A DNA stretch of 64,000 nt from Alphaproteobacteria bacterium (GTDB taxonomy: Bacteria; Pseudomonadota; Alphaproteobacteria; UBA2966), in contig JABIFY010000104.1 in the NCBI GenBank assembly GCA_018650465.1, positions 6,107 to 70,106 of the forward strand, in the 5' to 3' direction. The translations under genes and the position numbers were made by a program. Below, piece after piece: positions 8,890 through 59,782 of the stretch. The notes beneath the pieces are model-generated. The model did not search any database and was not told where the DNA came from. It was given only the letters and a program-made list of their open reading frames with translations. The first letter of the stretch is position 1; each line of letters opens with the position of its first letter.

Positions 8890-8920
8890 CCGTTTCTTCG
8901 CCAGTTTCCCGAAGAAACGG
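8890..8920. other. GC-rich hairpin: 11-bp perfect stem CCGTTTCTTCG / CGAAGAAACGG with a 9-nt loop. It lies about 80 bp upstream of the small membrane-protein gene.
   Basis: Read directly from the sequence. No T-tract lies on either side. Confidence 0.3.
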
Positions 8921-8997
8921 CCCTCAATCTTCCGGCACTGGCGCAACCCCGACGGAACGCTAAAATAGCCCCAGGGCTTAATTCCAGGAGGAAAAGC

Positions 8998-10708: not shown

Positions 10709-10730
10709 CGGATGTTTGACCGCCAGGCGC

Positions 10731-11648
10731 TTAACCGACAGCGGCATCTTTCAAGGGCGCATCTGCTTCATCAATACGCGGGTTCTGGCCACGCAGGACG
10801 GAGTTATCATCGAACAATGTGCGTTGATCGATGGGCGCCGGGTTGAGCCAGTCTTCTTCGTTGAACTGACCACTTTGGCCATAGGCGTTGATGGCATTTT
10901 GATAGCAGGTCATGTGGATGTGGTGCTGATCAATGCCTTTGCTGGCCATCAGGTTCGCAACCTTGGGCACAGCTAGGGGGTCAGAGACACCCCAGTCGGC
11001 ACTGGAATCACAGATGATCCGTTCCGAACCATATTGGCGCACGACTTCGACCATGCGCTCGTTGCCCATCTTGGTTTGTGGGTACAAGGTGAAAGCGGCC
11101 CAGAATCCCCGGTCCAGTGTTTCCTTGACGGTCTCTTCAACGTTGTGATCAACGATGACCTTGTTGGGGGCCAGTCCGTGTTCCAGACAGACATCCATGG
11201 AACGGCTGGTGCCTTTTTTCTTGTCCCGGTGGGGCGTGTGGATCATGACCAGCATGTCGAGTTCTTTTGCCAGTTCCAACTGGGCCCGGAAATATTTGTC
11301 TTCCGCCGCGGACTGTTCGTCATAGCCGATCTCACCAATGGCGACGACGCCTTCCTTGGTGGCAAAGCGCGGCAAGATATCCATAACTTCTTCCGCCAGG
11401 GCTTCGTTGTTGGCTTCCTTGCTGTTGAGGCCAATGGTGCAATAATGGCTGATGCCAAACTGCGCCGCCCGGAAGCGTTCCCAACCAATCAGCGATGAAT
11501 AATAATCGATAAAGCTGCCGACATTTGTGCGGGTCTGACCCAGCCAGAAGGCGGGCTCGATTACGGCGACAACACCAGCAGCGGCCATGGCCTCATAATC
11601 GTCGGTGGTGCGGGCGCTCATGTGAATGTGCGGATCGATGGTTTTCAT
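10731..11648 (-). CDS. eboB: TatD-family metal-dependent hydrolase (EboB-type).
   Basis: TatD-like N-terminus IDPHIHM and TIM-barrel hydrolase His/Asp/Glu pattern. It sits between the eboA-like and FAD dehydrogenase genes. Confidence 0.7.
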   Translation of the reverse strand: MKTIDPHIHMSARTTDDYEAMAAAGVVAVIEPAFWLGQTRTNVGSFIDYYSSLIGWERFRAAQFGISHYCTIGLNSKEANNEALAEEVMDILPRFATKEGVVAIGEIGYDEQSAAEDKYFRAQLELAKELDMLVMIHTPHRDKKKGTSRSMDVCLEHGLAPNKVIVDHNVEETVKETLDRGFWAAFTLYPQTKMGNERMVEVVRQYGSERIICDSSADWGVSDPLAVPKVANLMASKGIDQHHIHMTCYQNAINAYGQSGQFNEEDWLNPAPIDQRTLFDDNSVLRGQNPRIDEADAPLKDAAVG

Positions 11649-11677
11649 TTTTGTATTCCCCTTAAACCCTTATGTTA

Positions 11678-12556
11678 CTAGGGTTTTGGTGCGTCATTAC
11701 AAACAGTTTCCCAAGAAACGCGTCCGGCTTCAATGTCTGATTTGATCTCTGGTACAGAATTAAGCATGGCTGTGGCTTTTTCGTGCGGGCTTTCCGATAA
11801 GGCCAAAGCCGCTGCCTGGCGCTCGACAATGAGTTCGCGACCCAATGGCCAGCCCAGATCATCAATCAGCTCATCGTTGGCAAAGGGGCCGATCATGCGC
11901 CAAAGTTCAGGCGTTATGGTGCGACTGGCGGCCTGACGTTCATGGGCATAATCAATCAATGTTGTTGCCAGGTCCCGATTGCGACGTCCATCCAGGCCCT
12001 GAATGGGATCAAGCTTGCTGCCGATAAAAATGGCTTTCAGCACCATCTGGTTCCAGGCATTTTCGCCAAAGTTTTCGACCGGGTAGGGATTGTTGTGGGC
12101 TACAGCTTCAAACACAGCCTTCATATTGGTGCGCAGACCCTCGCCCGCCCTGGCAACATAACGTTCCCCGTCGGGATAAAGTGGCAAGCCCTGATAAAAG
12201 GCAATGGATTCGCGAACATCTGCGGTAATGCAGAGTTGCTCCAGGCGGCGGGCAAATTCCGGTCCCTCCGGTGTTGCCGCAAGCATGATCACAAGTCTGG
12301 CTGCCTGATCCACACTCCAGTTCAAAGGGCACCAGCCAGATCGAGCTTCATCTGCGGCTTTCATGTCAGCCGCTGTTAAAATCAGATCAGCTTTGCCAAG
12401 CTTGCGCGGTACCAGACTAACGGCAAGATAGAGATCACGATCAGCCGCGCCATCCAAAGCAGCGGCGCTATCAGTCAGCCAATGGAAGGCCTCGTCGGGC
12501 AATTGCTTTTGCAGCCATTCTTGCATGAGTTCCAGGGGGCGTGTGGGATTGCTCAT
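11678..12556 (-). CDS. eboA: EboA-family protein (function unknown; conserved first gene of ebo clusters).
   Basis: A ~290-aa soluble protein with no other recognisable catalytic motif. It sits immediately between the EboE-like and TatD (EboB) genes, 6 bp after eboE, which matches the eboA position in the canonical cluster. The assignment is by context and overall resemblance, not by a run HMM. Confidence 0.55.
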   Translation of the reverse strand: MSNPTRPLELMQEWLQKQLPDEAFHWLTDSAAALDGAADRDLYLAVSLVPRKLGKADLILTAADMKAADEARSGWCPLNWSVDQAARLVIMLAATPEGPEFARRLEQLCITADVRESIAFYQGLPLYPDGERYVARAGEGLRTNMKAVFEAVAHNNPYPVENFGENAWNQMVLKAIFIGSKLDPIQGLDGRRNRDLATTLIDYAHERQAASRTITPELWRMIGPFANDELIDDLGWPLGRELIVERQAAALALSESPHEKATAMLNSVPEIKSDIEAGRVSWETVCNDAPKP

Positions 12557-33540: not shown

Positions 33541-33699
33541 TTTTGTTTCCCGGAAGTTGTCGCAATGCTTGCCGGGAAGTGTGCCACGCCTGAAACTGAA
33601 ATCAAGTCGTGACAGTGCCTGCGGAAATATAACTTACTATTAAGTGTTTGATATGGCACTATTTCCAGATTGTGCAGGGGCACATGAATTGGGGATCAA

Positions 33700-34131
33700 A
33701 TGACAAGGTCAGGTGCTGAGCGCCCATCCGATGTTCGCCGCGAGGAATTCCAAAAGGGAAAAGTCATCTTCGAAGATGGTGACCTGGGCGGTCGTGTCTT
33801 TGTCGTGGAAAAAGGTTGTGTCGAGCTTTCCAAGAGGGTGGGTGCTGAAAAACGTGTTCTGGGCACGCTGGGCGAAAATGAAATATTTGGCGAATTGTCC
33901 GTACTGACAAATGAGCCCCGTTCGGCGACGGCGACAGCCCTTGAATATACGGTTTGTCTGACGGTTTCAGACTCTGAAATCAAGGAACGCATGAAGTCAG
34001 CCGACCTGTTCGTTCAGGCCCTGATCCGCATCTTGATCAATAACCTGAGAGAAACGACCAACCGATTTGTGATTGGTGACTCTGAGAAAGATGGTGACGT
34101 TGAGAAAGATGGGGACGCGGCTGAAAACTGA
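33700..34131 (+). CDS. Stand-alone cyclic-nucleotide-binding (cNMP, CAP-effector-type) domain protein with no DNA-binding domain.
   Basis: cNMP-binding beta-roll signature IFEDGDLGGRVFVVEKGCVEL...GENEIFGELSVLTNEPRSATATA. The protein is 143 aa. Confidence 0.6.
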   Translation: MTRSGAERPSDVRREEFQKGKVIFEDGDLGGRVFVVEKGCVELSKRVGAEKRVLGTLGENEIFGELSVLTNEPRSATATALEYTVCLTVSDSEIKERMKSADLFVQALIRILINNLRETTNRFVIGDSEKDGDVEKDGDAAEN

Positions 34132-44938: not shown

Positions 44939-45144
44939 TTTTGGGAACTTGCAGACACAACATGCCGCCGGACCATCGGTTTCGTCAACATTCAGAATGT
45001 TTCCGAAATGTGTCTGACCCAATCCAGGGTTAGGCAATGGCGCTGGAATGACGCAGTATGGCACTCAGCAAATGTGCGCACCGGATTGAACGGCGCGTTG
45101 TGAAAAATTTCCCGAACGGGTTTTAATATATTGAGGACGCTCTG

Positions 45145-48100
45145 GTGCGATATCTGAATAACATAAAGCGCGGTATTTTCCTGGGGCTTATGATTATCGT
45201 TATGTCAGCTGTGACAGTTTCTGCCTCAGCTGCTGACAGCACGATCTCACTCACAGATGCCGAACGCGCCTGGATCAAAGCCAATCCGCGCATTCGTGTC
45301 CACAACGAGATGGATTGGCCGCCCTTTAATTTCGCCAGAGAGGACCAGGCCCAGGGTTATTCTATTGATTTCATGAATCTTGTGGCCAGCAGCACCGGAC
45401 TACAGGTCGATTATGTAACCGGCCCCACATGGGGTGAGTTTCTGGAATTGATGAAAAGCGGCAAGCTGGATGTCATGCTGAACATCGTCAAAACGCCAGC
45501 ACGCCAGAAGTACCTTTTATATACCCGTCCCTATGCCGATAATCCCAACACCATTCTCAGTCGTCGCGATGCGCCCTATGACAGTCTTGAACAATTGTTT
45601 GGTAAAACCATTTCCGTGCCCAAGGGGTTTTTCTATGAAGAAATCCTCAAACGCGAATATCCCAAAATAAAACTTCATCTGGTCAAGGACACGCTGGAGA
45701 CCATGAAGGCTGTGACTTTCGGTAAGGCGGATGCGGCTTTGGGAGAACTGGCTGTATTCAATCACTTGCTGGGTGCCCATTTAATGACCGGTCTTGGCGT
45801 TTCCGGCGAAGTGAAAATGGGCAACCCCGAATATGCCTTGCTGAATATGGCCACCCGGACAGACACGCCATTGTTGGCGTCCATTCTGGACAAGGGTATC
45901 AAATCCATCACGATCGAACAGATCAGGGCCATCCAGCGCAAATGGCTGGGTGAGACACGTGTCAGTCAAGACCCTGCGCGGTCCATGGCGTTGACCAGTG
46001 CGCAAAAGGACTGGCTGGTGCAGCATCCGGTTATTCGTCTTGGCATTGATCCCGATTACCCACCCTTCGAGTTTGAATCCGAAGATGGCAAATTGTCGGG
46101 TATTTCCGCCGACTATCTCAGGCTGATCAACAAACGTTTGGGTACAGATATCAAGGTCGTACCTGGTCTGAAATGGCCGGAAGTTATCGCCGGTGTTGAG
46201 GCAGGGTCAGTGGATATATTGTCGGCGGCTCTGCGGTCCCCTGTGCGCGAAAAGTTTCTGTTGTTCAGCAAGCCACATCTTGAATTTCCTGTCGTCATCC
46301 TGACCCGCGATGATTATCCCTTTGTGGCGAACCTGGATGATCTCACGGGTAAAAAAATTGCCCTGGTGCGCGATTTTTCCGTCACCGATCTGATCCGCAA
46401 GAACTTCCCGCAAGTGGTTCCACACATGGTCGATACCCCCTTGGCTGCGCTTCAGGCTGTGTCCGTTGGGGATGCCGAGGCCGCTGTGATCAATCTGGCA
46501 GTAGCGACAAACTTTATCCGCACAAACAATCTGATCAACATCAAGGTTGCAGCCCCTGCCGGGTTGGATATCAAGGGTCTGGCCTTTGCTGTGCGCAAGG
46601 ACTGGCCAGAATTGGTGGGAATTCTCAACAAGGCCCTGGCATCGATTACGCCGGAAGAGGAAGCCCAAATTCGCAACCGGTGGATTTCGGTTCGCTATGA
46701 ACATGTCGCGGACACAGAAGCGTTGGTCAAGGTTGCCTTGCAGGTCGGTGCCGTTGCCGTTGTTATCTTGCTGCTGATCGTGTTCTGGAACCGGCGATTA
46801 CGACAGGAAATTGGCCGTCGCGAAGCCACGGAAACTGAGTTGACCGAAAAGGAAGCTTTGCTGCGACTGGCATTGGCGCAGATGTCGGACGGCATTTATC
46901 AACTGGATAACCAGTTGCGCTATACCTTGTTTAATGATCGATACGTGGAGTTGGTTGATGTGCCACAAAACCTTGTGCAGGTTGGCATGCCGGTCGAGCG
47001 TGTCGTGCGTCACCTGGCCCAGCGTGGAGATTATGGTGAGGGTGAAATCGAAACTCTGGTGCAAAAACGCCTGAGAGAATTCATCTTGCCTGATCCGATC
47101 AGCGTCGAAGTCACGACACCTGACAAAATACTGGAATTTCGCCAGACCCCGGCGGCTGATGGTGGCATGGTTGCTGTTGCCTCGGATATTACCGAGCGCA
47201 AGCAATATGAAGAAATCCTGCGCAAGGCCAAAGACGATGCCGAAGCCTCTGCCCAGGCCAAATCTGATTTTATCGCGGTTGTCAGTCACGAAGTTCGCAC
47301 CCCCATGAACGGGGTGCTGGGTATGGCCCGCCTGATGCTGGAAACGCCGCTTATCGGTGAACAGGTTGAATATGCCCAGACGATAGTGGATTCCGGAGAG
47401 GCCTTGCTGACGATTCTCAATGATCTGTTGGATATCTCGAAACTGGAAGCCGGGAAACTTGAGATCGAAGCCTTTGCTTTTGCGCCACGTCGCTTGATTG
47501 CAGATACAGGTAATGTCATGCGACCGAGGGCCGTTGAAAAGGGATTGAAAACACAGTTCCGCGTTGGAGATAATGTTCCCCTTGCCGTCATCGGTGATGC
47601 CAACCGGTTGCGCCAGATCGTGTTTAATTTGCTCAGCAATGCCATCAAGTTTACGGACCGGGGCGAAGTTGAAATCGCCGTGGAGGCACAGGAAACCGGC
47701 GAGGATACCGTTGAATTGATTGTCAGTGTAACAGACACTGGCGCCGGTATTGATCCTGAGTCGGCGGACAAATTGTTTGCACCTTATGTTCAGGCCAATG
47801 TTGATATTGCCCGCAGGTATGGTGGTACAGGCCTTGGTCTGTCGATCAGCCGTCGCCTTGCCGGCTTGATGGGTGGTTATCTCACGCTGCAAAGCGAAGT
47901 TGGCAAGGGGAGCACCTTTACCTTGACCGTTCCCTTTGAAACCACTGAATCCATACCCACAGAGGCACGAGACAACACGCACTGGACGGACAAAAGTTTT
48001 GGTCGGGGTTTGCGGATCTTGCTGGTGGAAGACAACCGCATTAACCGCAAAGTCGCCGAAGGCATGATCGGCAAACTGGGCCACAAACTTGTTGCGGCGG

Positions 48101-49491
48101 AAAACGGCCAGGAGGCGTTGGAAAAAATTGCCACGGAAGATCCCTTTGATGTGGTCCTTATGGACCGACACATGCCGGTTATGGATGGCATTGAGGCCAC
48201 ACGGCGGATCCGTGCCATGGAGGGCATTGAAGGGACTATACCTATTATTGCCGTGACGGCAGCGGCAACCCAGCGCGAGGTCGAAACCTGTCTTGAAGCC
48301 GGTATGAATGATGTTGTGACCAAGCCCATTGATCCCAGACTGCTGGATATCGCCCTGAAGCGGATATCCTTGTCAGATGAACATGTGCCGGACCAGGATG
48401 TGTTGACGGACGACACCCACAGCGCGGATGCAGCGGTACTGGACCTTGGCGTCATCGATGCCCTGAACAAGGATTATGGTGAAGATTCAGCCGCGGAGTT
48501 TTTTGATATGTTCCGGGAAATTGCCCCCGAAGCCATAAGTGGTTTTCAGGCAGCGGTTGTGGCCGGGGACGTCGGTCAGATGACACATTTTTCTCACGAC
48601 CTGAAAAGTAGCGCTGCCAATGTTGGCCTGATGCGTTTGTCTGGCTTGTGTCGTGATATTGAAATGGCATCAGATGATGGCCGGATGGAAGAGGCCTGCA
48701 AAATGGGCGAGGCCTTGCCCGTGGCGCTGGCGCAAGCTTTGCGCGCACTGGTAACGCTTGAGCGTGACGATGTTATGGGCACCGAACCGGCTGATGCACA
48801 AGCCTTGTTCCTGGCGAAAATGGGTCATGATTTGCGAAATGTCATGAACAATGTGACGGGCTATGTTGCCTTGCTGCAAGAGGACAGGGACGCCAACCAT
48901 TCACCGGAAACGGTGGCGGGGTATGCCGCGGAAATTCGCCGCGGTGGTGACCGCATGCAGGGCATGAGCGAATGTATGTTTGACCTGATCCAGCTGCAGG
49001 CGGGAACGTGGCCCTACAAGGCGCAATCATTTGATTTGAACCATGCCGTGCAGGATTGTATTGCGGTATCGGACAGCCAGGGCAACGAAGATGCCCAAGC
49101 GGCAGATCAAATCCGGATTGATTTTCAGCCGCTGGCAGACTCTGTACAGGCTTATGGCGATCCGGCGGCCTTTCGAAAGATGCTGACTCTTTTGCTTCTC
49201 AATGCGACGTCCACCAGTGCCGCAGCAAGCGAAGTCAGGGTCCATCTGGATACTGCTGGCCCGGAAACCGTTCTGGTCGTCAGCGATCAAGGATCCGGAA
49301 TTGGACTGGAAGTCGCGGCCCAGATTAACGATCCCTATGGCAGCGTGTGGCAAGGGTCGGATGGGACATCTGTGCAAAACCTGCGCTTTGCCGTGGCCGC
49401 CGGTCTGGCTGCTTTGGCTGGCAGCAGCCTGGGCCTTGCCGACAGTCCTGAAGGAGGGACACGGGCCTCGGTTTCCCTGAAGGGAAACTGA
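45145..49491 (+). CDS. BvgS-like hybrid sensor kinase. It has a signal peptide, two periplasmic SBP family 3 (Venus-flytrap) domains, TM, PAS, HisKA, HATPase, receiver and Hpt, plus an additional C-terminal HisKA/HATPase-like module.
   Basis: GTG start with a GAGGA ribosome-binding site. H-box VSHEVRTPMNGVLGMARLM. N/G boxes NLLSNAIKFT, DTGAGI, GGTGLGLSI. Receiver ILLVEDNRINRK...DRHMPVMDG. Hpt HFSHDLKSSAANVGL. A second H-box-like segment (MGHDLRNVMNNVTGYVALL) and N/G-like boxes (LLLNATSTS; VSDQGSGIGLE) lie at the C-terminus. Confidence 0.85.
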   Translation: MRYLNNIKRGIFLGLMIIVMSAVTVSASAADSTISLTDAERAWIKANPRIRVHNEMDWPPFNFAREDQAQGYSIDFMNLVASSTGLQVDYVTGPTWGEFLELMKSGKLDVMLNIVKTPARQKYLLYTRPYADNPNTILSRRDAPYDSLEQLFGKTISVPKGFFYEEILKREYPKIKLHLVKDTLETMKAVTFGKADAALGELAVFNHLLGAHLMTGLGVSGEVKMGNPEYALLNMATRTDTPLLASILDKGIKSITIEQIRAIQRKWLGETRVSQDPARSMALTSAQKDWLVQHPVIRLGIDPDYPPFEFESEDGKLSGISADYLRLINKRLGTDIKVVPGLKWPEVIAGVEAGSVDILSAALRSPVREKFLLFSKPHLEFPVVILTRDDYPFVANLDDLTGKKIALVRDFSVTDLIRKNFPQVVPHMVDTPLAALQAVSVGDAEAAVINLAVATNFIRTNNLINIKVAAPAGLDIKGLAFAVRKDWPELVGILNKALASITPEEEAQIRNRWISVRYEHVADTEALVKVALQVGAVAVVILLLIVFWNRRLRQEIGRREATETELTEKEALLRLALAQMSDGIYQLDNQLRYTLFNDRYVELVDVPQNLVQVGMPVERVVRHLAQRGDYGEGEIETLVQKRLREFILPDPISVEVTTPDKILEFRQTPAADGGMVAVASDITERKQYEEILRKAKDDAEASAQAKSDFIAVVSHEVRTPMNGVLGMARLMLETPLIGEQVEYAQTIVDSGEALLTILNDLLDISKLEAGKLEIEAFAFAPRRLIADTGNVMRPRAVEKGLKTQFRVGDNVPLAVIGDANRLRQIVFNLLSNAIKFTDRGEVEIAVEAQETGEDTVELIVSVTDTGAGIDPESADKLFAPYVQANVDIARRYGGTGLGLSISRRLAGLMGGYLTLQSEVGKGSTFTLTVPFETTESIPTEARDNTHWTDKSFGRGLRILLVEDNRINRKVAEGMIGKLGHKLVAAENGQEALEKIATEDPFDVVLMDRHMPVMDGIEATRRIRAMEGIEGTIPIIAVTAAATQREVETCLEAGMNDVVTKPIDPRLLDIALKRISLSDEHVPDQDVLTDDTHSADAAVLDLGVIDALNKDYGEDSAAEFFDMFREIAPEAISGFQAAVVAGDVGQMTHFSHDLKSSAANVGLMRLSGLCRDIEMASDDGRMEEACKMGEALPVALAQALRALVTLERDDVMGTEPADAQALFLAKMGHDLRNVMNNVTGYVALLQEDRDANHSPETVAGYAAEIRRGGDRMQGMSECMFDLIQLQAGTWPYKAQSFDLNHAVQDCIAVSDSQGNEDAQAADQIRIDFQPLADSVQAYGDPAAFRKMLTLLLLNATSTSAAASEVRVHLDTAGPETVLVVSDQGSGIGLEVAAQINDPYGSVWQGSDGTSVQNLRFAVAAGLAALAGSSLGLADSPEGGTRASVSLKGN

Positions 49492-49603: not shown

Positions 49604-50305
49604 GTGAGTCAAATGGCCGAACAAAGTGGGGTCCTGGGGCCGGAAAGCATTCTCGTTATTGAGGATGATCTTGCCTTTGCCAGGCTATTGGTCACTTTTC
49701 TGAAGAAACAGGGGTACGATGCCGAAACAGTACCTACCGCGGCAGAAATGTTTCAGAAACTGGAAGACAAAACCTACGATTGTCTGATCGTTGACTTAAC
49801 CTTGCCGGATGAAGACGGCATTGTTCTGGTGCGCAAACTTCGGGCCCGCGCCATTGGCCCCTTGATCGTCCTGACCGGGCGCGACGGGATTGATGACAAG
49901 CTGGCCAGTTTTGAAGTTGGTGCGGATGATTATGTCACCAAGCCCGTTGACCCCCGCGAAATTGTGATGCGCATCAAAGCTGTGCGCAGCCGATCAACAA
50001 CTTACGGCGCGGACGCGGCCGACAAGATCAAGCTGGGCTCATATTTACTGGACCATGAAAAACGGGAAGTCAGCCGCGAAGATCAAACACTGGTGGACGT
50101 GACCCCCGCCGAATTCAATCTCATGTGGGTTTTGGCCCAGGCTGAGGGTAAAGTCCTTAGCCGCGATATCCTGGTGGACGCGGTTTCAACAGGTGATGGC
50201 CCGGCATCCTTTCGTGCCGTTGATATTCTGGTCAGCCGGGTGCGCAAGAAACTCGACAAGGAAGCCATTCTGACTGTACCCAACAGCGGCTACAAATGTG
50301 GCTGA
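49604..50305 (+). CDS. OmpR-family response regulator (receiver plus winged-helix DNA-binding domain).
   Basis: Receiver ILVIEDDLAFARLL...DLTLPDEDG. OmpR C-terminal trans_reg_C pattern LTPAEFNLMWVLA...VSRVRKKL. Confidence 0.85.
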   Translation: MSQMAEQSGVLGPESILVIEDDLAFARLLVTFLKKQGYDAETVPTAAEMFQKLEDKTYDCLIVDLTLPDEDGIVLVRKLRARAIGPLIVLTGRDGIDDKLASFEVGADDYVTKPVDPREIVMRIKAVRSRSTTYGADAADKIKLGSYLLDHEKREVSREDQTLVDVTPAEFNLMWVLAQAEGKVLSRDILVDAVSTGDGPASFRAVDILVSRVRKKLDKEAILTVPNSGYKCG

Positions 50306-50477
50306 CCTGTCAGTCAAGCTTGATGTTTTGGGTTAATATACAACAATATCAATAGCTTAGATTTTTTTCAATCAGACACATTTCAGAAACCTTTTTCCTG
50401 AAGCTTTGGCCTAAAAGTAGTTCATCCAATGACGGAACATACACTTAACCAAACTTCAGTAAGCAAGGAAAAAGACA

Positions 50478-50750
50478 ATGGCGAATATCGGAAATCATAC
50501 TTTTGTTGACGGCGTCGGTGACATTCGGTTGCGCGATGGCGTGGTACGCATGGACCTGCTGGCCCTGTCACCAACCCGCCGTGACCAGGAAGGCAGCCCA
50601 GTTCCGCAGTTTGTTGATCAGCTGGTGATGTCACCTCGTGCATTTCTGCGCATGGTTTCTGCCCTTGGCGATACCGTTCGCCAGATGCAGGAAAAAGGCA
50701 TGCTTGGCAGCGCCGCTGAAGCTGGCGAAGAAGCTGCAGCAGAAGCCTGA
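50478..50750 (+). CDS. Small protein, paralogue A (90 aa). It has a conserved ~65-aa N-terminal domain and an Ala/Glu-rich tail. Function unknown.
   Basis: The GGAAAAAG ribosome-binding site is 5 nt upstream. Residues 8-68 are nearly identical to those of the ORF at 50840. A rho-independent terminator follows. Confidence 0.55.
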   Translation: MANIGNHTFVDGVGDIRLRDGVVRMDLLALSPTRRDQEGSPVPQFVDQLVMSPRAFLRMVSALGDTVRQMQEKGMLGSAAEAGEEAAAEA

Positions 50751-50758
50751 ATGAAAAT

Positions 50759-50799
50759 GGTGGGGACAGGCGATCAGGCCGCCCCACCTTCTTTTCTCT
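50759..50799 (+). terminator. Rho-independent terminator-like hairpin (GGTGGGG...CCCCACC followed by TTCTTTTCTCT) immediately after paralogue A.
   Basis: Read directly: a 7-bp GC stem with a T-rich tract. Confidence 0.5.
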
Positions 50800-50839
50800 A
50801 ATCAATAATCAATAATTCAGCCCAACAGGGAATAACAAA

Positions 50840-51169
50840 ATGCCCAGTATTTCAGAACAATCATTTATCGATGGCGTTGGCGATATCCGTTTGCGTGACG
50901 GCATCATCCGCATGGATTTGTTGGCCTTGTCACCAACACGCCGTGACCAGGAAGGTAATCCTGTCCCACAGTTTGTTGATCAACTGGTCATGTCACCAGC
51001 CGCCTTTTTGCGCATGGTTTCGGCCCTGGGTGACACTGTCAAACAGATGCATGACAAGGGCTTGCTGACTAGTCCCGCATCTGACCAGCCTGAAGCAGCC
51101 GCTGAACAGCCATCGGTCACAAGCTCTGGCAAGAAGAAAAAGGAAAAAAAGGTATCGCCGAATTTTTGA
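50840..51169 (+). CDS. Small protein, paralogue B (109 aa). It has the same N-terminal domain and a divergent Ser/Thr/Lys-rich tail.
   Basis: Core FIDGVGDIRLRDGIIRMDLLALSPTRRDQEGNPVPQFVDQLVMSPAAFLRMVSALGDTV, closely matching paralogue A. Confidence 0.55.
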   Translation: MPSISEQSFIDGVGDIRLRDGIIRMDLLALSPTRRDQEGNPVPQFVDQLVMSPAAFLRMVSALGDTVKQMHDKGLLTSPASDQPEAAAEQPSVTSSGKKKKEKKVSPNF

Positions 51170-51239: not shown

Positions 51240-52076
51240 TTGAAAATGACAGACCAAACCACAGATACGAACGGCGCATTCCGCGCTCTGGTTGTTGATG
51301 ACAACGCCATGTCCCGCAAGATGCTGGAACATCGCCTGGTCAAGGATGGCCATCAGGTAACCTGCGTTACCAGTGGTGAAGAAGCCCTCGACTATGTAGT
51401 TAATCATCCTGTTGACGTCATGTTCCTGGATTTGCATCTGACAGGTATCGATGGGATTGAAGTCCTCAAAGCGCTGAAGGCCGACGAGAAGACAAGCGAT
51501 ATTAACGTTGTCATGGTTTCAGGCAGTGACCGGGAAGAAGCTGTGATTGAAAGCCTGCGGGCCGGTGCCAAAGTCTTTTTGCATAAACCTGTCGCCGCCC
51601 AGGACTTGCGTGATGCCATGCACAAACTGTCGGGTTCATCCATCCGCGAGAATCATAATGGCACCCCGCCTTCGATTTCGCCGAACACATCTGCCGAACC
51701 AGTTATATCGATCGAAGATTCCCCTGTTCTCAATCCAGCGCAGCTCCAGCAATTGTTACGGGATTATGGTGCGACGGAGACAACAGGGTTCATCAATCGC
51801 TTCGCTGAACTGGCGCCAGGTCAGTGTGAATATGTTCAGGACCGTGCCGCGACAGGTGATGTGAATGAATGGCGTTTCGCGGTTCATGACCTGAAGGGCA
51901 GTGCCCGGTCGGTAGGCCTGGTACGTCTGGGCACCATTTGCCGCGACATTGAACGGGCCTTTGACGAAGACCGCATTGAAGACGCGGCCTCATTGACGGC
52001 CTTGTTGCCGGATCAACTTGAACACGCGCTGGCAACACTTCGCCAACAAGGCGCCCAGATTACCGGGGAGACGTGA
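51240..52076 (+). CDS. Response-regulator receiver protein with a C-terminal Hpt-like domain.
   Basis: Receiver ALVVDDNAMSRK...DLHLTGIDG...KP. Hpt-like HDLKGSARSVGL. Confidence 0.72.
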   Translation: MKMTDQTTDTNGAFRALVVDDNAMSRKMLEHRLVKDGHQVTCVTSGEEALDYVVNHPVDVMFLDLHLTGIDGIEVLKALKADEKTSDINVVMVSGSDREEAVIESLRAGAKVFLHKPVAAQDLRDAMHKLSGSSIRENHNGTPPSISPNTSAEPVISIEDSPVLNPAQLQQLLRDYGATETTGFINRFAELAPGQCEYVQDRAATGDVNEWRFAVHDLKGSARSVGLVRLGTICRDIERAFDEDRIEDAASLTALLPDQLEHALATLRQQGAQITGET

Positions 52077-52077
52077 C

Positions 52078-52842
52078 GTGGCGCGCCTAGTTTTCGACTT
52101 TAGTGTTTTGCGGGTCTTGTTGGTAGAAGACGACACCTTCGCCCGCGAAATGGAATTGACAGCCTTGCAGCATCTTGGCATTTCACGCATCACCATTGCC
52201 AGCGATGGCACGGATGCGCTGGATATTCTGGAGCGCAACAAAACCTTTGATCTGATCATTTCTGACTGGAATATGCGGCCCCTGGATGGCATTGGCCTGG
52301 TCACATCGGTGCGCCGTCACTGGCCCTCAATTGCCTTTGTTATGATCACCAACAATGAAACCGTTGAGCGGGTTCACCAGGCAACAGATGCGGGGGTCGA
52401 TGGTTATCTGATTAAACCTTTTTCCCTGAACAAACTGCGTGAAGTTATTCAACTTGCCTTGATGTCCCGGGTGGAAAGTGCAGAAGGGCTGTTCTTCGAT
52501 CAATCGAAACAGCGCCCCGCCAATCCCGAACTGGACGAGGTTTCGAACTGGCTGCACGGTGTTCTTGCCCAGCCGGTGGACCAGGCGGGTGGTGTTGAAC
52601 AAAAAAATGATGAGGCCATCACGGTTCTGGAAAACCGGAACCTGGCCGCGAAAGTCTCTAATCAATTGACCGGTTTCATAAGCCTGCTGGATGCCTCTGA
52701 CCCCGCCCAGCTTTCAGTCATTCGCCTGCATGTCGATTGCATCCGGGCCATTTTATCCGGCCGCAATGATTTACTGGAGCACGAAACACGCAACGCAATA
52801 CTCGACGGCCTGACACTCGCAGCCGACCTTGTGACAGATTAG
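52078..52842 (+). CDS. Response regulator: a receiver domain plus an uncharacterised C-terminal domain.
   Basis: Receiver VLLVEDDTFAREME...SDWNMRPLDG...KP. The probable start is GTG 52078, directly after the upstream stop. The track ORF begins at 52018. Confidence 0.6.
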   Translation: MARLVFDFSVLRVLLVEDDTFAREMELTALQHLGISRITIASDGTDALDILERNKTFDLIISDWNMRPLDGIGLVTSVRRHWPSIAFVMITNNETVERVHQATDAGVDGYLIKPFSLNKLREVIQLALMSRVESAEGLFFDQSKQRPANPELDEVSNWLHGVLAQPVDQAGGVEQKNDEAITVLENRNLAAKVSNQLTGFISLLDASDPAQLSVIRLHVDCIRAILSGRNDLLEHETRNAILDGLTLAADLVTD

Positions 52843-52851
52843 GAAAAGACC

Positions 52852-54996
52852 ATGCATACCGCCATCACCTGTTTTGTCCTGACGGCCCGCCGACACGGTG
52901 TGCATACGACTGTCGAACGTGTTGTTCATGATTATGCCATCCAGGATGAACCCACTGCAGCCCGCGTTGTTCGCATTGCCCAGGATCTGGGCCTGAAGGG
53001 TCGTTCGCGCAAAATCAAATGGGAAACATTAGCCCGCGTCGGCAAAGCCTTCCCATTGTTGTGCCCCCTGAAAAATGGCAACTGGGTGGTTCTGGCGTCG
53101 TTGGATGCGGGGACCGCAGACCAGGCTCCGGCAGCCCTGATCCTGGATCCCATGAGCGAGGGTGGCGGCCTGATCCGGGTTGACCAGGAGATGCTTGAAA
53201 AAGCCTGGACAGGTGAAGTGGTTTTCCTCAAGCGGGCCAGTCAGATCACGGACGAAGATCAACCTTTTGGTTTTCGCTGGTTTGTGCCGGAAATCTTGCG
53301 CCACAAATCCCTCTTTGTCGAAATCGGCATTGCAGCCCTGTTCATGCATGTCCTGGCCCTGGCCTCACCTGTGTTCTTTCAGATCACGCTGGATAAAGTC
53401 ATTGGCAATCAGGCCATCGATACCTTGTATGTGTTGGCAGGTGGCGTTTTTGTCGCTTTCACTTTCAATGCCATCCTGGAATACCTCAGAAGTCTTTTGC
53501 TGCTGCACGCCACCGGCAAAATGGATGTACGGGTGGCGACGCGCACTTTTGGCAAGCTCATGAGTTTGCCCATCGATTTTTTCCGCGGCACCTCGGCCGG
53601 TACCCTGACCAAACATATGCAGCAGACCGGCAGTGTGCGCGAATTTCTCACCGGGCGCTTGTTCCTGACATTCCTCGATATGACAGCCGTTTTTGTCTAT
53701 CTGCCGATCCTGTTCTTTTATTCATCTGCGTTGACCTGGGTTGTCCTGGGCTTTACCGGTGCGATCTCCGCCATCAGCTTTGTCATCAAGGGACCTTATC
53801 GCCGTCGTCTGTTGGCCCTCTATCGGGCAGAAGGTGCGCGCCAATCCATGCTGGTAGAAACCATCGGCGGCATGGAAACGGTCAAGGCCCTGGCGATTGA
53901 ACCCATCAAGGAAAAAGTCTGGGCCGATACATCTGCTCAGGCCGTTGCCATGCAATTGTCGGTCGGCAAAATCTCTCATCTGGTCAAGGGCCTGACAAAG
54001 TATCTCGGCCAGTTGATGACCATGATGATCATCTTTGTTGGTGCCCAGATGGTATTCTCTGGCGACGTCAGCGTTGGCGCCTTGATTGCCTTTAATATGC
54101 TGGCCGGTCGGGTCAGCGGCCCTTTGATCCAGGCCGTTGGTTTGATCAACGAATTCGAACAGTCTTCGCTCTCGGTCAAGATGCTGGGCGAAGTCATGAA
54201 CCAAAAACCCGAGCGTGCCTCTACCGGTGGTCTGACACCAAAAATTCGCGGCGATATTGAATTTGATAACGTCACCTTTCGTTATGGCAAGGATGGCCCG
54301 CCCGCGTTGAGCAACATGTCTTTCAAAATTGACGCCGGTCAGGTGGTTGGCATCGTCGGGCGCTCTGGTTCCGGAAAGAGTTCCGTGCTGCGCATCTTTC
54401 AGGGACTGTATCGCCCAACTTCAGGTCTGATCCGCATTGATGGTGTGGATGTGCGGGAAATTGATCTGGCACATTTACGCATGAATACGGGTGTGGTCTT
54501 GCAGGAAAGCTTTTTGTTCCGGGGCACCGTACGAGATAACATCGCGGTTACCCGTCCGGAATCAGCCTTCGCTGATATCGTGGCGGCGGCAAAAATGGCT
54601 GGTGCCGACGAGTTCATCCAACGATTACCACAAGGGTATGACACGGTACTTGAAGAAGGGGCTTCGAACCTATCCGGTGGGCAGAAGCAGCGCCTCGCTA
54701 TTGCCCGCTCGCTGATGCGCCAGCCCCGGTTCCTGGTTCTGGATGAAGCGACCAGCGCCCTGGATCCGGAAAGTGAAGCAATTGTCCAGGCCAACCTGCA
54801 ACAGATTGCCGCCGGGCGGACCGTACTGATCGTCTCGCACCGCCTGTCGACCCTGGTTGATGCCGATACCATCATGGTGGTTGAAGAAGGCCGGATCGCC
54901 GAGCAAGGCAGCCATAGCGAACTTCTGAACAACAGTGAAATTTATCGCCAACTTTGGTATACCCAGAACCCGGAGCAGAACCGTGCAGCAGAATAG
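52852..54996 (+). CDS. Type I secretion ABC transporter (HlyB/bacteriocin-exporter family) with an N-terminal C39-like domain, a 6-TM domain and a C-terminal NBD.
   Basis: Walker A GRSGSGKSS. ABC signature LSGGQKQRLAIAR. Walker B FLVLDEATSALD. An N-terminal ~130-aa C39-like segment is present (AITCFVLTARRHG...). By eye the peptidase catalytic Cys position appears to be substituted. Confidence 0.82.
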   Translation: MHTAITCFVLTARRHGVHTTVERVVHDYAIQDEPTAARVVRIAQDLGLKGRSRKIKWETLARVGKAFPLLCPLKNGNWVVLASLDAGTADQAPAALILDPMSEGGGLIRVDQEMLEKAWTGEVVFLKRASQITDEDQPFGFRWFVPEILRHKSLFVEIGIAALFMHVLALASPVFFQITLDKVIGNQAIDTLYVLAGGVFVAFTFNAILEYLRSLLLLHATGKMDVRVATRTFGKLMSLPIDFFRGTSAGTLTKHMQQTGSVREFLTGRLFLTFLDMTAVFVYLPILFFYSSALTWVVLGFTGAISAISFVIKGPYRRRLLALYRAEGARQSMLVETIGGMETVKALAIEPIKEKVWADTSAQAVAMQLSVGKISHLVKGLTKYLGQLMTMMIIFVGAQMVFSGDVSVGALIAFNMLAGRVSGPLIQAVGLINEFEQSSLSVKMLGEVMNQKPERASTGGLTPKIRGDIEFDNVTFRYGKDGPPALSNMSFKIDAGQVVGIVGRSGSGKSSVLRIFQGLYRPTSGLIRIDGVDVREIDLAHLRMNTGVVLQESFLFRGTVRDNIAVTRPESAFADIVAAAKMAGADEFIQRLPQGYDTVLEEGASNLSGGQKQRLAIARSLMRQPRFLVLDEATSALDPESEAIVQANLQQIAAGRTVLIVSHRLSTLVDADTIMVVEEGRIAEQGSHSELLNNSEIYRQLWYTQNPEQNRAAE

Positions 54997-56839
54997 TTCC
55001 GGGGACTTGACGACAGAGCCCCAAGCCTCAAGCCAGCCTGGCGACCTCACGACAACGGCAGATGTACCTGCCTATGCCCTGACCACAGCCGGCGAAACCC
55101 TGACCTTTGAAACCGATACCGAGATCTTCAAAGAAGGCGCTGCCAGTGATTATGCCTATATCGTCGTTGAAGGCGGGATCGAGCTGACCAAGGATATGAG
55201 TGGCTCGGAAGTTTTCCTGGCCGAAATTGGGCCGGGTGATCTGTTCGGTGAAATGGGTTTGATCGATGGCAGCCTGCGCAGTGCCACGGCGACGAGCCTG
55301 GGCAATACCGTGCTGATGAGAATCGACCGCGAAGAATTGATGCGCAAACTTGGTCAGGAGGGCGACTTCGCTGCGCCCGTACTGGGGCAACTTGTTGCCC
55401 AATTGCGCAATACAAGTGACCGCCTGGCCCACGAGCGCCATTTGACTTTGCAGCGTGCCGCCGAGACGGCGGAATATATAGAGCCCGTCAGCATGGGGCC
55501 TCTTTCCAGGTTGCGCTATTTCTTTGATGCTGAACAGGACTTGATTGAATTCCAGCCGGATGCTGTGGAAATCGACCGCCAGAAATTTCCGGCGGTGGCC
55601 AAGGTCATGCTCTATGTGATTATTTTCTTCATTACCGGCCTGTTTGTCTGGGCGAATTATTCGACCATCGATACGGCTGTGGCTGCTTTCGGCCGTATGA
55701 CGACCAAGGTGCCGAACATCATTGTGCAGCCGTCCGAGACGGCGAAAATCATGACGATCCATGTGCGGGCCGGTGACATTGTCAAAAAAGGCCAGTTGCT
55801 GGCGACACTTGATGCCACAAATGCCCAGTCTGACGCCAATGTCAGCCGAACATCATTATTGCAGATCCGTGCCCAGGAACGTCGATTGGTGGCTGAGAAC
55901 AGCGGCATTGTTATGCCGGGCGGCTTTTCCAAAGATGCCGCCGTAAACAGTTTGCAGCAGGAAATTTTTGATCGCCGTAGAACCCGCCTCGAACAACAGC
56001 AAGCTTCATACGTTGAGCAAATTGAGCAGATCAAATCTGATATCTCGTCGAATGTCCAGGACGCAAAGGATCTGGGTGAACAGGCAGATGTGTTGAAAGA
56101 AATTGAAGCCATGCGGGCGGGTTTGATGAAAAAGGGTGTGGGCAGCCGGGTGAATTACCTCAGCTCAAAACACCAGCGCTTGGCCGTTGACCGCGAGAAG
56201 CGTCGCTTGCTGAGTACGCGCAGAAGTATGGAACATCAACTGAAAGGTCTGCAGGCCGATCGCCAGGCTGCGTTGGCTGAATCGCAATCCAGGGTCGCCC
56301 AGGAACTGGTCGATACCCGCCGCGAACGCGAACGCCTGAGCGAGCAATTGATCAAAAGCGACTATCGGGAAGCTTTGGTCAAACTGACCGCCCCGGCACC
56401 CGGTGTTGTGCTTAAAGTAGCGGAACGCTCTGTCGGCTCCGTTATCCAGCAGGCCGAAATGATGTTTACCATTGTACCGGCAAATGTGCCCGTGGAAATG
56501 GAAGTCGATGTGCAGCCCAAAGACATTGGCTTGATCCAGGTCGGTGATGTTGTGCGTGTCAAACTGGATGCCCTGCCGTTTCAAAAACATGGCATTATCA
56601 AGGGCCGGGTCCGTTTCATAAGTGAAGACGCTGTTCAGACCGAAGGCCGTGAGGCTCGCAGTGTCTATCGTGCCCGTGTGGAACTTTTGAACCGTGATCT
56701 GCGTGAAGTGCCGGACAGTTTCCGACTGACACCGGGTCTGACGGGCAGTGCTGATATCACCGTCGGCAAACGCCGGATCATCACCTACTTTATCTATCCA
56801 CTGGTGCGGGCCTTTGATTCAAGCTTCAAGGAGCCCTGA
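54935..56839 (+). CDS. HlyD-family membrane-fusion (periplasmic adaptor) protein fused to an N-terminal cyclic-nucleotide-binding domain.
   Basis: N-terminal cNMP motif IFKEGAASDYAYIVVEGGIEL...GPGDLFGEMGLIDGSLRSATATS. A single TM is present (VMLYVIIFFITGLFVWA). A long coiled-coil and the HlyD C-terminal beta-domain are present. The start is uncertain: ATG 54935 overlaps the ABC gene by 62 bp, and GTG 54983 is an alternative. Confidence 0.8.
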   Translation: MKFIANFGIPRTRSRTVQQNSSGDLTTEPQASSQPGDLTTTADVPAYALTTAGETLTFETDTEIFKEGAASDYAYIVVEGGIELTKDMSGSEVFLAEIGPGDLFGEMGLIDGSLRSATATSLGNTVLMRIDREELMRKLGQEGDFAAPVLGQLVAQLRNTSDRLAHERHLTLQRAAETAEYIEPVSMGPLSRLRYFFDAEQDLIEFQPDAVEIDRQKFPAVAKVMLYVIIFFITGLFVWANYSTIDTAVAAFGRMTTKVPNIIVQPSETAKIMTIHVRAGDIVKKGQLLATLDATNAQSDANVSRTSLLQIRAQERRLVAENSGIVMPGGFSKDAAVNSLQQEIFDRRRTRLEQQQASYVEQIEQIKSDISSNVQDAKDLGEQADVLKEIEAMRAGLMKKGVGSRVNYLSSKHQRLAVDREKRRLLSTRRSMEHQLKGLQADRQAALAESQSRVAQELVDTRRERERLSEQLIKSDYREALVKLTAPAPGVVLKVAERSVGSVIQQAEMMFTIVPANVPVEMEVDVQPKDIGLIQVGDVVRVKLDALPFQKHGIIKGRVRFISEDAVQTEGREARSVYRARVELLNRDLREVPDSFRLTPGLTGSADITVGKRRIITYFIYPLVRAFDSSFKEP

Positions 56840-57178: not shown

Positions 57179-58561
57179 ATGACTGATTTTACGGGCCTTG
57201 AACTGGCCCAACCCCTGCTTCGTGCCATAGAGGGCGAAGGTTATACAACACCCAGCCCCATCCAGGGCAAAGCTATTCCACCCCTGATGTTGGGGCGTGA
57301 TTTGTTGGGCGTTGCCCAGACCGGTACCGGCAAAACCGCCGCTTTTTCCTTACCCTTGTTGCATCGCCTGTGTGGCGGTGACGAAGGCGATGCAGGCCGC
57401 CCGCTGTCGCGCCAGCCCCGGGCGCTGATCCTGGCTCCCACGCGCGAGCTGGCCGGTCAGATCGTTGACAGCCTGAAAACCTACAGTCGCCACATGCAAA
57501 TTCGTACGGCAGTGATTTTTGGTGGTGTTTCCGCCAAACCACAAATCAAGACCATGAATTCCGGTGTGCATATTCTGGTGGCGACACCGGGTCGTTTGCT
57601 TGATCTGATGAACCAGGGTTTTGTGCAACTGGACAAGGTCGAATATTTCATTCTCGATGAAGCCGACCGTATGCTCGACATGGGCTTCCAGCACGACGTC
57701 AAGAAAATCGCTGCCAAGGTACCAGCGCGTCGCCAGACCATGCTGTTTTCGGCCACCATGCCAAAATTAGTTCAGGGCCTGGCCAATAACCTGCTTGATG
57801 ATCCCGTTCGGGTTGAAGCGGCTCCGGCTGCGACGACAGCCGAAAAAGTTGAACAGCAGGTTTTGTTTGTGGCCAGCGACAACAAGCGAAACTTGCTAAG
57901 TCATTTGCTGAAAGATCAAAGCGTTGAACGTGTGCTGGTTTTTACCCGCACCAAACACCGTGCCAACCGGGTTGCCAAACATCTGGTAGATTCAGGCATC
58001 TCGGCAGACGCGATCCACGGCAACAAGGCTCAGAATGCCCGTCAAAGGGCACTTGATGGCTTTAAAAAGGGTAGCATCCGGGTGCTGGTTGCTACAGATA
58101 TTGCCGCCCGTGGCATTGATGTTGATGGCGTGACCCACGTGATTAACTTCGAATTGCCGAATGAACCTGAAAGCTACGTGCATCGTATTGGCCGCACGGC
58201 CCGTGCCGGCGCGGACGGCATCGCCATCTCGTTTTGTGATCACGAAGAACGTGGTTATTTGCGCGACATCGAAAAAACCATCCGCCAGACCGTGACCCTG
58301 GTCGAAGATCACCCTTGGCATGCAGCGGACGTTGCGACCTCTACCGCCAAGCCGCCTGCACCAGGCGGTCGTGGTGGTCGCGGCGGTCGGGGGGGCCAGC
58401 CCAAAAGGCAGGGGCAACCGAAGAAGCATACCGGTCAGGCCCAAAATAATAATTCCGGCCAAAAGCCTGGAAACAGCCCTGGAAATAGTCAGGGTCAAAA
58501 GCCGGGTCAGCGTCGTCGTCGCCCACAAAGGGGTCGCCGACCAACGGGAATGGCGGCCTGA
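57179..58561 (+). CDS. DEAD-box ATP-dependent RNA helicase (RhlE-like) with a Gly/Arg-rich basic C-terminal tail.
   Basis: Q-motif, AQTGTGKT (motif I), DEAD, SAT and HRIGRTAR motifs are present. The tail contains [14 protein letters not shown]. Confidence 0.9.
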
Positions 58562-58756: not shown

Positions 58757-59782
58757 ATGGCTAAAGCGCCTGGCAAAGACGCCCTGAATAATATCTCCGG
58801 TCCACAAAAGGCCGCCATCATGATGTTGGCGATCGGTGAGGATCGTTCTGCGCGCATGTTTGGCATGATGGACGAGGAAGAGATCAAAGAACTTTCTCAA
58901 GCCATGGCCAATCTGGGTGCCATTGATGCCAATGTCGTTGAGCGTTTGTTCCAGGATTTTGCGGCGCAATTGTCGGGGACAGGTTCATTAGTGGGCTCCC
59001 TGCAAAGTACAGAACGCCTGTTGAGCAAAACTTTGACCAAGGAACAGGTCTCGTCGATCATGGAAGATATCCGTGGTCCGGCTGGTCGAACCATGTGGGA
59101 CAAGCTGGGCAATGTGAACGAAGACGTTCTCGCCAGTTATCTGAAAAACGAATATCCACAAACCGTTGCCGTGGTGTTGGGCAAGCTGAAGGCCGAACAG
59201 GCTGCTTCCGTTTTGGTGGCCTTGCCGGATGAATTTTCGGCTGAAGTTATTATGCGCATGCTGAGCATGGAGGTTGTGCGCAAGGAAATCCTCGAAGGTG
59301 TTGAGCAAACCCTGCGACAGGAATTCATGAGCAACCTGGCCCGCACCAACCAGCGCGACAGTCATGAAGTCATGGCGGACATTTTCAACAACCTGGATCG
59401 CGCTTCGGAAGAGCGCTTTATGAATTCGCTGGAAGAACGCAGCCGGGATTCAGCGGAAAAAATTCGCTCGCTGATGTTCACCTTTGATGACCTCGCCAAG
59501 CTGGATGCCAACGGTGTTCAGACCTTGCTGCGCCACATCGAAAAAGCCAAGCTGGCGATCGCCCTGAAGGGGGCCGGGGACGAAATCAAGGATATGTTCT
59601 TCAGCAATATGTCGGAACGTCAGGGCAAGATCCTGCGCGAAGATATGGAGAACATGGGCCCTGTACGCCTCTCGGAAGTCGACGAAGCCCAGATGGGCAT
59701 GGTCACAAAGGCCAAAGAACTGGCCACCAGCGGCGAAATCGTCATTGCCGACGCCAAGGGCGAAGACGAGATGATTTATTAG
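58757..59782 (+). CDS. fliG: Flagellar motor switch protein FliG.
   Basis: The protein is 341 aa. FliG middle and C domains are recognisable (VAVVLGKLKAEQAASVL; MFTFDDLAKLDANGVQTLLR; EDMENMGPVRLSEVDEAQ). Confidence 0.78.
   Translation: MAKAPGKDALNNISGPQKAAIMMLAIGEDRSARMFGMMDEEEIKELSQAMANLGAIDANVVERLFQDFAAQLSGTGSLVGSLQSTERLLSKTLTKEQVSSIMEDIRGPAGRTMWDKLGNVNEDVLASYLKNEYPQTVAVVLGKLKAEQAASVLVALPDEFSAEVIMRMLSMEVVRKEILEGVEQTLRQEFMSNLARTNQRDSHEVMADIFNNLDRASEERFMNSLEERSRDSAEKIRSLMFTFDDLAKLDANGVQTLLRHIEKAKLAIALKGAGDEIKDMFFSNMSERQGKILREDMENMGPVRLSEVDEAQMGMVTKAKELATSGEIVIADAKGEDEMIY

Follow-up and report, generated by a model that had tools for sequence, protein, structure and literature searches.

The stretch analysed here, referred to as the window, comprises 64,000 nucleotides of contig JABIFY010000104.1 from an alphaproteobacterial genome assembly (GCA_018650465.1) and contains two small tandem genes on the forward strand, located within a phosphorelay and type I secretion system (T1SS) locus. 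The short paralogue (50478-50750) encodes a protein of 90 amino acids, in which a beta3-alpha core is followed by a short acidic tail rich in Ala and Glu that lacks an SPNF peptide. The long paralogue (50840-51169) encodes 109 amino acids, with the same core followed by a disordered linker rich in Ser, Pro and Lys and by a C-terminal SPNF, the codons of which (tcg ccg aat ttt, 51155-51166) directly precede the stop codon. Both genes are very probably members of an uncharacterised, widespread family that forms a conserved element of one T1SS subclass. It is equally likely that this subclass, which includes the 'BltDE' type of Rhizobium, is defined by an ATP-binding cassette (ABC) exporter with a dead C39-like domain (CLD), a fusion protein of the HlyD type and large substrates of the RTX or repeat kind.

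The two proteins share 68 of 89 residues (76%; BLASTP, E = 5e-51), confirming the tandem pair of 90-aa and 109-aa open reading frames (ORFs) described at these positions in an earlier sequence-only reading of the window. A tblastn scan of the 64 kb, in line with the search for more paralogues proposed there, returned no additional copy. Each gene also has its own ribosome-binding site, as that reading had stated, with Shine-Dalgarno-like sequences (AAGGA at 50465-50469 and AGGGA at 50827-50831) placed 8 nt upstream of the respective ATG. Both ORFs are genuine genes under purifying selection, because the ratio of nonsynonymous to synonymous substitution rates (dN/dS) of the core is low, at 0.064 between the window paralogues over 76 codons and 0.008-0.08 against orthologues on other contigs, with dS saturated; the values involving the short paralogue are 0.008-0.06. 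The closest relatives include P0001, which is 99% identical to the long paralogue, and an orthologue of the short paralogue at locus L003, which occupies the same locus position with a core identity of 94.7%. Among close relatives the identity of the core exceeds that of the ABC exporter (94.7% vs 84.7%, and 85.5% vs 76.1%), indicating stronger constraint on the core than on the transporter. At locus L019 (9641-10357), the short and long copies are mutually closer (dS 0.40, 86% nucleotide identity) than either is to its orthologues (dS ~2), and P0004 groups with the long core of the window yet has a short-form tail; these two observations suggest gene conversion or recombination between tandem copies.

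Neither window protein matched any model in Pfam or NCBIfam, even at E = 10, in agreement with the earlier remark that the domain could not be recognised, and this includes the NHLP, Nif11 and bacteriocin precursor models (E up to 10). Close homologues (55-99% identity) were found solely in uncultured marine Rhodospirillales. A profile search covering 1.84 billion cluster representatives recovered 518 of them at E <= 1e-3, extending the family to about 30% identity. Nearly all of the best 150 of these 518 matches are 80-160 residues long, and the family is Cys-poor (0.14%) and mostly acidic, with a median isoelectric point (pI) of 5.3. AlphaFold2, supplied with a diverse alignment, modelled the core of the long protein with a predicted local distance difference test (pLDDT) score of 96-98 and the tail at about 60. 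The modelled core comprises three long antiparallel strands (residues 12-19, 22-35 and 41-51) and a helix (53-72), and the model of the short protein agrees in showing strands and then a helix. The core is thus confidently predicted to be a folded beta3-alpha domain of about 75 residues.

The family profile yielded only noise against PDB sequences, and a Foldseek search against the PDB gave nothing significant. The nearest fold is that of the COMM domain, found in eukaryotic COMMD and bacterial COMMD-like proteins, although no Foldseek match to it reached significance; the COMM domain is an obligate dimer. The core fold is therefore without an established homologue and is probably a small beta3-alpha module that needs a partner. 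Five of 38 remote members gave co-linear, sub-threshold matches to DUF3467 (PF11950), spanning the last strands and the helix (best E = 9e-4), and remote members scanned singly score about 13 bits against a Pfam gathering threshold of 25. The likeness consists in these weak co-linear matches to a domain that itself lacks a known function, and the two window proteins do not match DUF3467 even at E = 10. Two other relationships were considered and rejected: SecB is absent from the structural matches listed, and matches to PUR/PC4-type nucleic-acid binders faded with a better model.

The C-terminal regions were surveyed over the last 20 residues of 146 family cluster representatives. The tip [ST]PNF occurs in 60 of these, near variants such as SANF, SSNF and TPNF in nine, and a PFP ending in eight, whereas 69 (47%), including the short paralogue of the window, carry no tip motif. 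SPNF is often preceded by Lys or Arg ([KR]SPNF), and the [ST]PNF tip is kept down to about 30% core identity. The linker between core and tip varies from about 15 to 80 residues and may be acidic, basic, Gln-rich or rich in Pro and Ala; the Lys-rich tail (GKKKKEKK) is a trait of Rhodospirillales long forms. The sequence-only reading had regarded the two tails as completely different low-complexity segments, which does not cover the end of the long protein, where a disordered tail terminates in the family-conserved SPNF tip that the short form and 47% of the family lack. No real gene other than family members ends in SPNF in the 45 loci and the window, and the idea that SPNF is a general tag of neighbouring proteins was accordingly discarded. 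A neighbour-joining tree of the Rhodospirillales clade places SPNF forms in the outgroup and on the basal branches and scatters the short forms elsewhere, so tail-less copies such as the 90-aa protein look derived and the SPNF form ancestral. The boundary between core and tail reads ...KGML/GS or ...KGLL/TS; in the close Rhodospirillales alignment the sole invariant Gly is G74, and no double-glycine column occurs at the boundary. The small proteins have no match to the Ca-binding GGxGxD repeats of HemolysinCabind, and their tails show no similarity to the C-terminal domain common to the RTX proteins encoded next to family members.

The association with type I secretion is conserved well beyond the window and is far more general than the sequence-only reading had claimed. 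The loci compared were the window, L003, L019, L022, L015, L008-L014, L024, L025, L033-L041 and plasmids of Rhizobium, Pararhizobium and Azospirillum, and 16 metagenome loci were annotated with the family hidden Markov model and BLAST. The family gene stands, at about 30 distinct loci, either between a gene for an RTX substrate and the genes for a C39-like ABC exporter and a fusion protein or after an orphan RTX gene; the hosts include uncultured Rhodospirillales, Rhizobium, Azospirillum and Planctomycetes-like genomes. T1SS genes adjoin the family gene in every locus with enough flanking DNA, and the sole locus without a T1SS neighbour is a 1.6-kb contig (L032). L003 has the same order of kinase, regulator, small gene, receiver-Hpt, receiver, ABC and fusion-protein genes as the window, with one tail-less copy only. 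L019 carries a short and long pair in the same place, immediately preceded by genes for an HlyC acyltransferase and a 1198-aa RTX protein; a gene at 8796-9221, between its RTX and small genes, encodes a 141-aa protein whose N-terminus resembles a signal peptide and which has two internally repeated, Cys-containing helical segments and no Pfam match. L022, from a distant lineage, encodes HlyC, a divergent motif-less paralogue, an SPNF paralogue, the ABC exporter and a fusion protein with a cyclic nucleotide monophosphate (cNMP)-binding domain, with a 1510-aa RTX gene alongside. Tandem pairs of motif-less and SPNF copies also occur on several Rhodospirillales contigs.

Other arrangements vary around the same components. 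In Planctomycetes-like genomes, one cluster member of which is annotated as Mariniblastus sp., a small gene ending in KSPNF is followed by genes for an M10-type RTX protein, the C39-like ABC exporter and the fusion protein. In L015, a PFP-ending member lies 10 nt upstream of the ABC gene, followed by the fusion-protein gene and a cadherin-like RTX gene. Two short contigs (L024 and L025) show the end of a fusion-protein gene and then the small gene, and the small gene and then the start of a CLD-ABC gene. The metagenome loci L033-L041 carry RTX, small, ABC and fusion-protein genes, and L027-L029 and L031 an RTX gene and then a short copy. In L005 the gene for a 1883-aa RTX protein is followed by a short copy and then by hlyC, and in L001 and L007 a short copy lies directly after an RTX C-terminal fragment, such that the orphan RTX genes of L005, L001, L007, L027 and L031 each have a short copy of their own. 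HemolysinCabind matches (E = 3e-17 to 3e-42) identify the large neighbours as RTX proteins, and the substrates differ among loci, ranging from M10-type RTX proteins and repeat toxins with HlyC to cadherin-like RTX and DUF4082 proteins; in L019 and L005, the C-termini of the RTX neighbours are D-hydrophobic motifs (DDILA, DDLV) and not SPNF. In three family fragments on short contigs (P0061, P0062 and P0064), an integrase or transposase domain (PF00589, PF04986) is fused to the family sequence or adjoins it, and the copy at L001 (1-3355) has an integrase and a reverse transcriptase nearby. Mobile elements may carry some of the orphan RTX-small modules.

In plasmids of cultured bacteria, 110 records match the family (96 Rhizobium, 6 Azospirillum, 4 Sinorhizobium and others). 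The annotated order comprises genes for a DUF4082 protein, a GTP-binding protein, a hypothetical protein (...ASPNFN), a 'peptidase domain-containing ABC transporter' and HlyD, and in Azospirillum for a hypothetical protein, the ABC exporter and HlyD. The genes are called 'hypothetical' everywhere, and the gene table of PLSDB, which is incomplete, lists no gene at the site of the small ORF in several plasmid records. In Rhizobium and Pararhizobium (L042, which is R. johnstonii 3841 pRL9, 3924-5108 and 10698-11930; L044; L045), each large DUF4082 gene is followed by a gene for a ~400-aa 'GTP-binding protein', before the small SPNF gene; this protein looks like a further lineage-specific accessory.

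The best-documented relative is the bltDE type I secretion locus on pRL9 of Rhizobium johnstonii (leguminosarum) 3841, which was named by Krehenbrink and Downie (2008; PMC2275737) together with the predicted substrates pRL90159 and pRL90161. This locus contains a homologue of the small proteins (WP_003549393.1, 102 aa, ending in ...ASPNFN; tblastn E = 3e-7), whose gene follows those of the two large predicted substrates and immediately precedes bltD (pRL90164, CLD-ABC) and bltE (pRL90165, HlyD); by its number, the small ORF is probably pRL90163. Taking as BltDE-like a locus with the CLD signature and with a small-ORF homologue that immediately precedes a CLD-ABC and HlyD pair or lies within 2 kb of it, we find both the gene position and the N-terminal signature of the ABC protein in the window, the CLD of which is about 40% identical to that of BltD. 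The Rhizobium locus differs in having a single SPNF copy instead of a tandem pair and GTP-binding protein genes after each substrate, and in lacking the phosphorelay and the cNMP domain on the fusion protein, both of which are present in the window. Our literature search found no work naming or discussing the small ORF upstream of bltD or the tag pRL90163, and searches on SPNF, DUF3467, DUF4082 or T1SS chaperones returned nothing on this family, PMC2275737 being the sole relevant paper.

A second likeness is to RTX operons of the HlyCABD type, such as that of E. coli haemolysin, which have in common with the present loci an ABC exporter with an inactive C39-like domain, an HlyD-type fusion protein and RTX substrates with an uncleaved C-terminal signal, as well as the HlyC acyltransferase encoded in L005, L019 and L022. 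Classical operons differ in having no gene between hlyA and hlyB, and no counterpart of the small family is known in them.

The exporter of the window (52852-54996, +) is of the HlyB type (TIGR01846, 646.6 bits; Pfam ABC_membrane and ABC_tran), and its gene starts 1.7 kb downstream of the small genes. Its N-terminal domain matches Peptidase_C39 of Pfam below threshold, with Thr3 at the position of the catalytic Cys17 of ComA, as judged from the spacing to the conserved ARxHG, and Val in place of His96 in the ComA alignment, leaving Asp alone of the catalytic Cys, His and Asp. Judging from these residues, the C39-like domain is catalytically dead and carries out no peptide processing. Inactive domains of this type occur in RTX exporters of the HlyB class. 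ABC genes adjoining family members in all lineages share the signature HTxLxC..ARxHG..HDYA..NGN(W)V, with a CLD identity of 30-79% across the 19 loci in which the CLD was covered, Rhizobium and Planctomycetes-like ones among them, and the catalytic Cys and His are likewise missing from all related ABC genes. The fusion protein (54935-56839, +; TIGR01843, 305.5 bits, above cut-off) carries an N-terminal cytoplasmic cNMP-binding domain (PF00027, E = 7.7e-20), an architecture shared with L003, L019 and L022. A separate small ORF at 33688-34131 (+) resembles this cyclic-nucleotide-binding domain (BLAST, 55 bits) and would be a second cNMP-binding protein of the window.

Upstream of the small genes lie those for a hybrid sensor kinase (45145-49491, +), the L003 orthologue of which has two periplasmic SBP_bac_3 domains, PAS, HisKA/HATPase, receiver and Hpt domains, and for an OmpR/PhoB-type response regulator (49604-50305, +; 76% identical to its L003 orthologue), which directly precedes the short gene. 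Downstream lie those for a receiver fused to Hpt (51240-52076, +; Pfam Response_reg and Hpt) and for a stand-alone receiver protein (52018-52842, +; Pfam Response_reg), whose listed start overlaps the preceding gene and may truly lie further downstream. The phosphorelay and T1SS surroundings described in the sequence-only reading were thus recovered in full. tblastn revealed no RTX substrate or HlyC gene elsewhere in the 64-kb window. The T1SS locus ends at the fusion-protein gene, followed by unrelated genes for an RhlE-type DEAD-box helicase (57179-58561) and FliG (58757-59782).

Two regulatory features accompany the pair. Between the genes, where a terminator had been noted, UUCUUUUCUCU follows a G+C-rich hairpin (50759-50788; -22.7 kcal/mol, z = -3.3 vs shuffles), and the element with its U-rich tail spans 50759-50799 (+). 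A simple terminator scan did not flag this hairpin, probably because the stem is broken by bulges and unpaired bases. A hairpin occurs at the same place between the paralogues of L019. The window hairpin probably terminates transcription in part or stabilises the mRNA, with the effect that the short gene is expressed above the long gene. About 85 nt upstream of the short gene lies an operator-like 11-bp direct repeat, CAGACACATTT/CAGAAACCTTT (50373-50394, +), which is the sole block conserved when the upstream regions of the window, L003 and L019 are aligned. Exact matches to the repeat pattern occur in L003 and L019, and a second copy with 3 mismatches lies at 44995-45016 (-), before divergent response-regulator genes, against a chance expectation of 0.00. 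The repeat looks like a candidate OmpR/PhoB-type site for the adjacent regulator, defining a small regulon, which suggests that this regulator drives the small-gene promoter. L019 (~10365-10450) contains 3 tandem copies of a ~27-nt unit (AGCGATGGCGCGGGATAGCAAGCC...) between the long paralogue and the receiver-Hpt gene.

Taken together, we favour the reading, with a probability of about 0.4, that the family provides this T1SS subclass with an adaptor or holdase that is cytoplasmic and forms dimers; its location, dimerisation, partners and effect on secretion we infer from sequence, models and analogy. The ~75-residue beta3-alpha core would serve as a cytoplasmic module for dimerisation and cargo binding, and a flexible linker, free to vary in length and composition, would join it to the short conserved peptide [KR]SPNF at the end. 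This peptide would dock on the C39-like or ATPase domain of the ABC exporter or on the cytoplasmic end of the fusion protein, allowing the adaptor to keep unfolded RTX substrates in that state or bring them to the transporter, much as SecB, SspB or SSB employ a tip at the end of a flexible C-terminal tail. In the window, an ancestral SPNF form may have been duplicated and the short copy may then have lost its tail, now forming mixed dimers with the long copy or holding substrates encoded elsewhere. The intercistronic hairpin would set the ratio in favour of an excess of the short copy, and the OmpR-type regulator of the adjacent phosphorelay would probably drive the promoter.

Several lines of evidence argue for this adaptor. 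The family follows machinery and RTX genes generally, not one cargo type, and orphan RTX genes each keep a copy, like dedicated chaperones elsewhere; in other secretion systems, dedicated chaperones and adaptors are encoded beside their substrates. The layout of a folded domain, an arbitrary linker and a conserved terminal peptide is that of SecB, SspB and SSB, a likeness in architecture only, in which a small oligomeric folded domain is joined by a variable flexible linker to a conserved C-terminal docking peptide. SecB is needed for the export of HasA by a T1SS. The stronger constraint on the core than on the exporter among close relatives and the D-hydrophobic endings of the RTX neighbours in L019 and L005 point in the same direction, and the pairing of a motif-less with an SPNF copy recurs in the distant L022. 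Weighing against the adaptor is that dedicated chaperones are not known to be a requirement of T1SS, SecB for HasA being the sole precedent, and that about half of the family (69/146) lacks the motif. In addition, the otherwise identical T1SS locus of L003 has a tail-less copy alone, so the SPNF tip is not indispensable for every transporter. Finally, neither the locus of the window nor that of L003 contains a substrate gene, which leaves the small proteins as the only candidate cargo encoded there.

This last point leads to the alternative that the small proteins are themselves T1SS cargo, with the disordered SPNF tail as a new C-terminal secretion signal and a core that folds outside the cell, where it might act as a signal for the periplasmic Venus-flytrap kinase or as a matrix or competition factor. 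We regard this alternative as possible but doubtful. The gene occupies the usual substrate position, directly upstream of the ABC and fusion-protein genes, the tail is disordered, as expected of T1SS signals, which are C-terminal and unstructured, and the Cys-poor, mostly acidic composition of the family would suit exported proteins. However, the 47% of representatives without motif or tail, including the short paralogue, still lie beside T1SS or RTX genes, and the same operons encode canonical RTX substrates with another C-terminal domain and ending. The compact, confidently predicted fold is also expected to form in the cytoplasm, and fast-folding passengers block export of the HlyA type. 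A core more conserved than its transporter would be unusual for an exported effector.

Distinctly unlikely is a secretion-coupled regulator resembling FlgM or ExsE, in which the long form would be expelled or titrated, freeing the short form or the response regulator and coupling the T1SS to the phosphorelay. In the window, L003 and L019 the genes lie amid those for response regulators and Hpt proteins, which would accord with such a role, as would the operator-like repeat upstream and the tandem of tail-plus and tail-less copies with a hairpin between them, which suggests a controlled stoichiometry. In contrast, most family loci (Planctomycetes-like, L015, L022, L033-L041, Rhizobium, Azospirillum) have no regulator nearby, so the link to the phosphorelay is lineage-specific.

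That the family is an immunity protein or inhibitor, neutralising within the producing cell the RTX toxin, bacteriocin or protease of a neighbouring gene, is very unlikely. The succession of toxin gene and small gene, also in orphan pairs, resembles toxin-immunity modules, and the BltDE substrates of Rhizobium were suggested to be bacteriocin-like (PMC2275737), but here a single conserved family accompanies unrelated substrate types and also stands beside ABC and fusion-protein genes alone. Moreover, it is under strong purifying selection instead of the diversification typical of immunity proteins, and its conserved terminal peptide points to a conserved partner.

Highly improbable is a nucleic-acid-binding regulator with a PUR/PC4/Whirly-like fold, whose Lys-rich tail would contact DNA or RNA. 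Although the GKKKKEKK tail of the Rhodospirillales long forms would fit, Foldseek gave no significant match, and a basic charge does not characterise the family, most lineages having acidic or neutral linkers.

The proposal of the sequence-only reading that the pair are leader-plus-core precursors, taken in the form that a C39 peptidase ABC transporter would cleave and export them, agrees with the conserved N-terminal and variable C-terminal parts and with the neighbouring fusion protein and C39-related ABC exporter, but it is already contradicted and scarcely credible given a C39-like domain without catalytic Cys and His, the lack of a double-glycine site and of any NHLP, Nif11 or bacteriocin model match, an N-terminal part that is modelled as a stable folded domain, C-terminal parts that are not free 'cores' but variable linkers ending in a conserved [KR]SPNF or lost altogether, and the ordinary large RTX substrates that related loci carry for the same transporters.

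Type I secretion exports toxins, adhesins and enzymes, has been engineered for protein production and has long been regarded as a three-component machine. Against the known framework of the T1SS and of Rhizobium bltDE, what is new is an extra conserved small component and a C-terminal motif in one T1SS subclass, a surprising addition that should interest specialists of these systems and whose role is proposed here from sequence and models. On the most far-reaching reading, which we consider unlikely, this subclass would have a fourth, dedicated cytoplasmic component, and [KR]SPNF would be a new short linear motif addressing proteins to ABC exporters with a C39-like domain. In its boldest form, the long paralogue would be expelled via this motif and feed back on the phosphorelay of the Venus-flytrap kinase; if true, a Gram-negative T1SS would here contain a protein loop akin to FlgM or to an autoinducer. 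The results also correct the annotation of genes so far called 'hypothetical', for which no family model exists in Pfam or NCBIfam. Because it is conserved, unannotated, fixed between substrate and exporter genes and equipped with a conserved C-terminal peptide, the family is a concrete candidate for the missing factor that recognises substrates or hands them over to ABC exporters with a C39-like domain, and it is present in genetically tractable bacteria, including Azospirillum and Rhizobium johnstonii 3841, where it is encoded upstream of bltDE.

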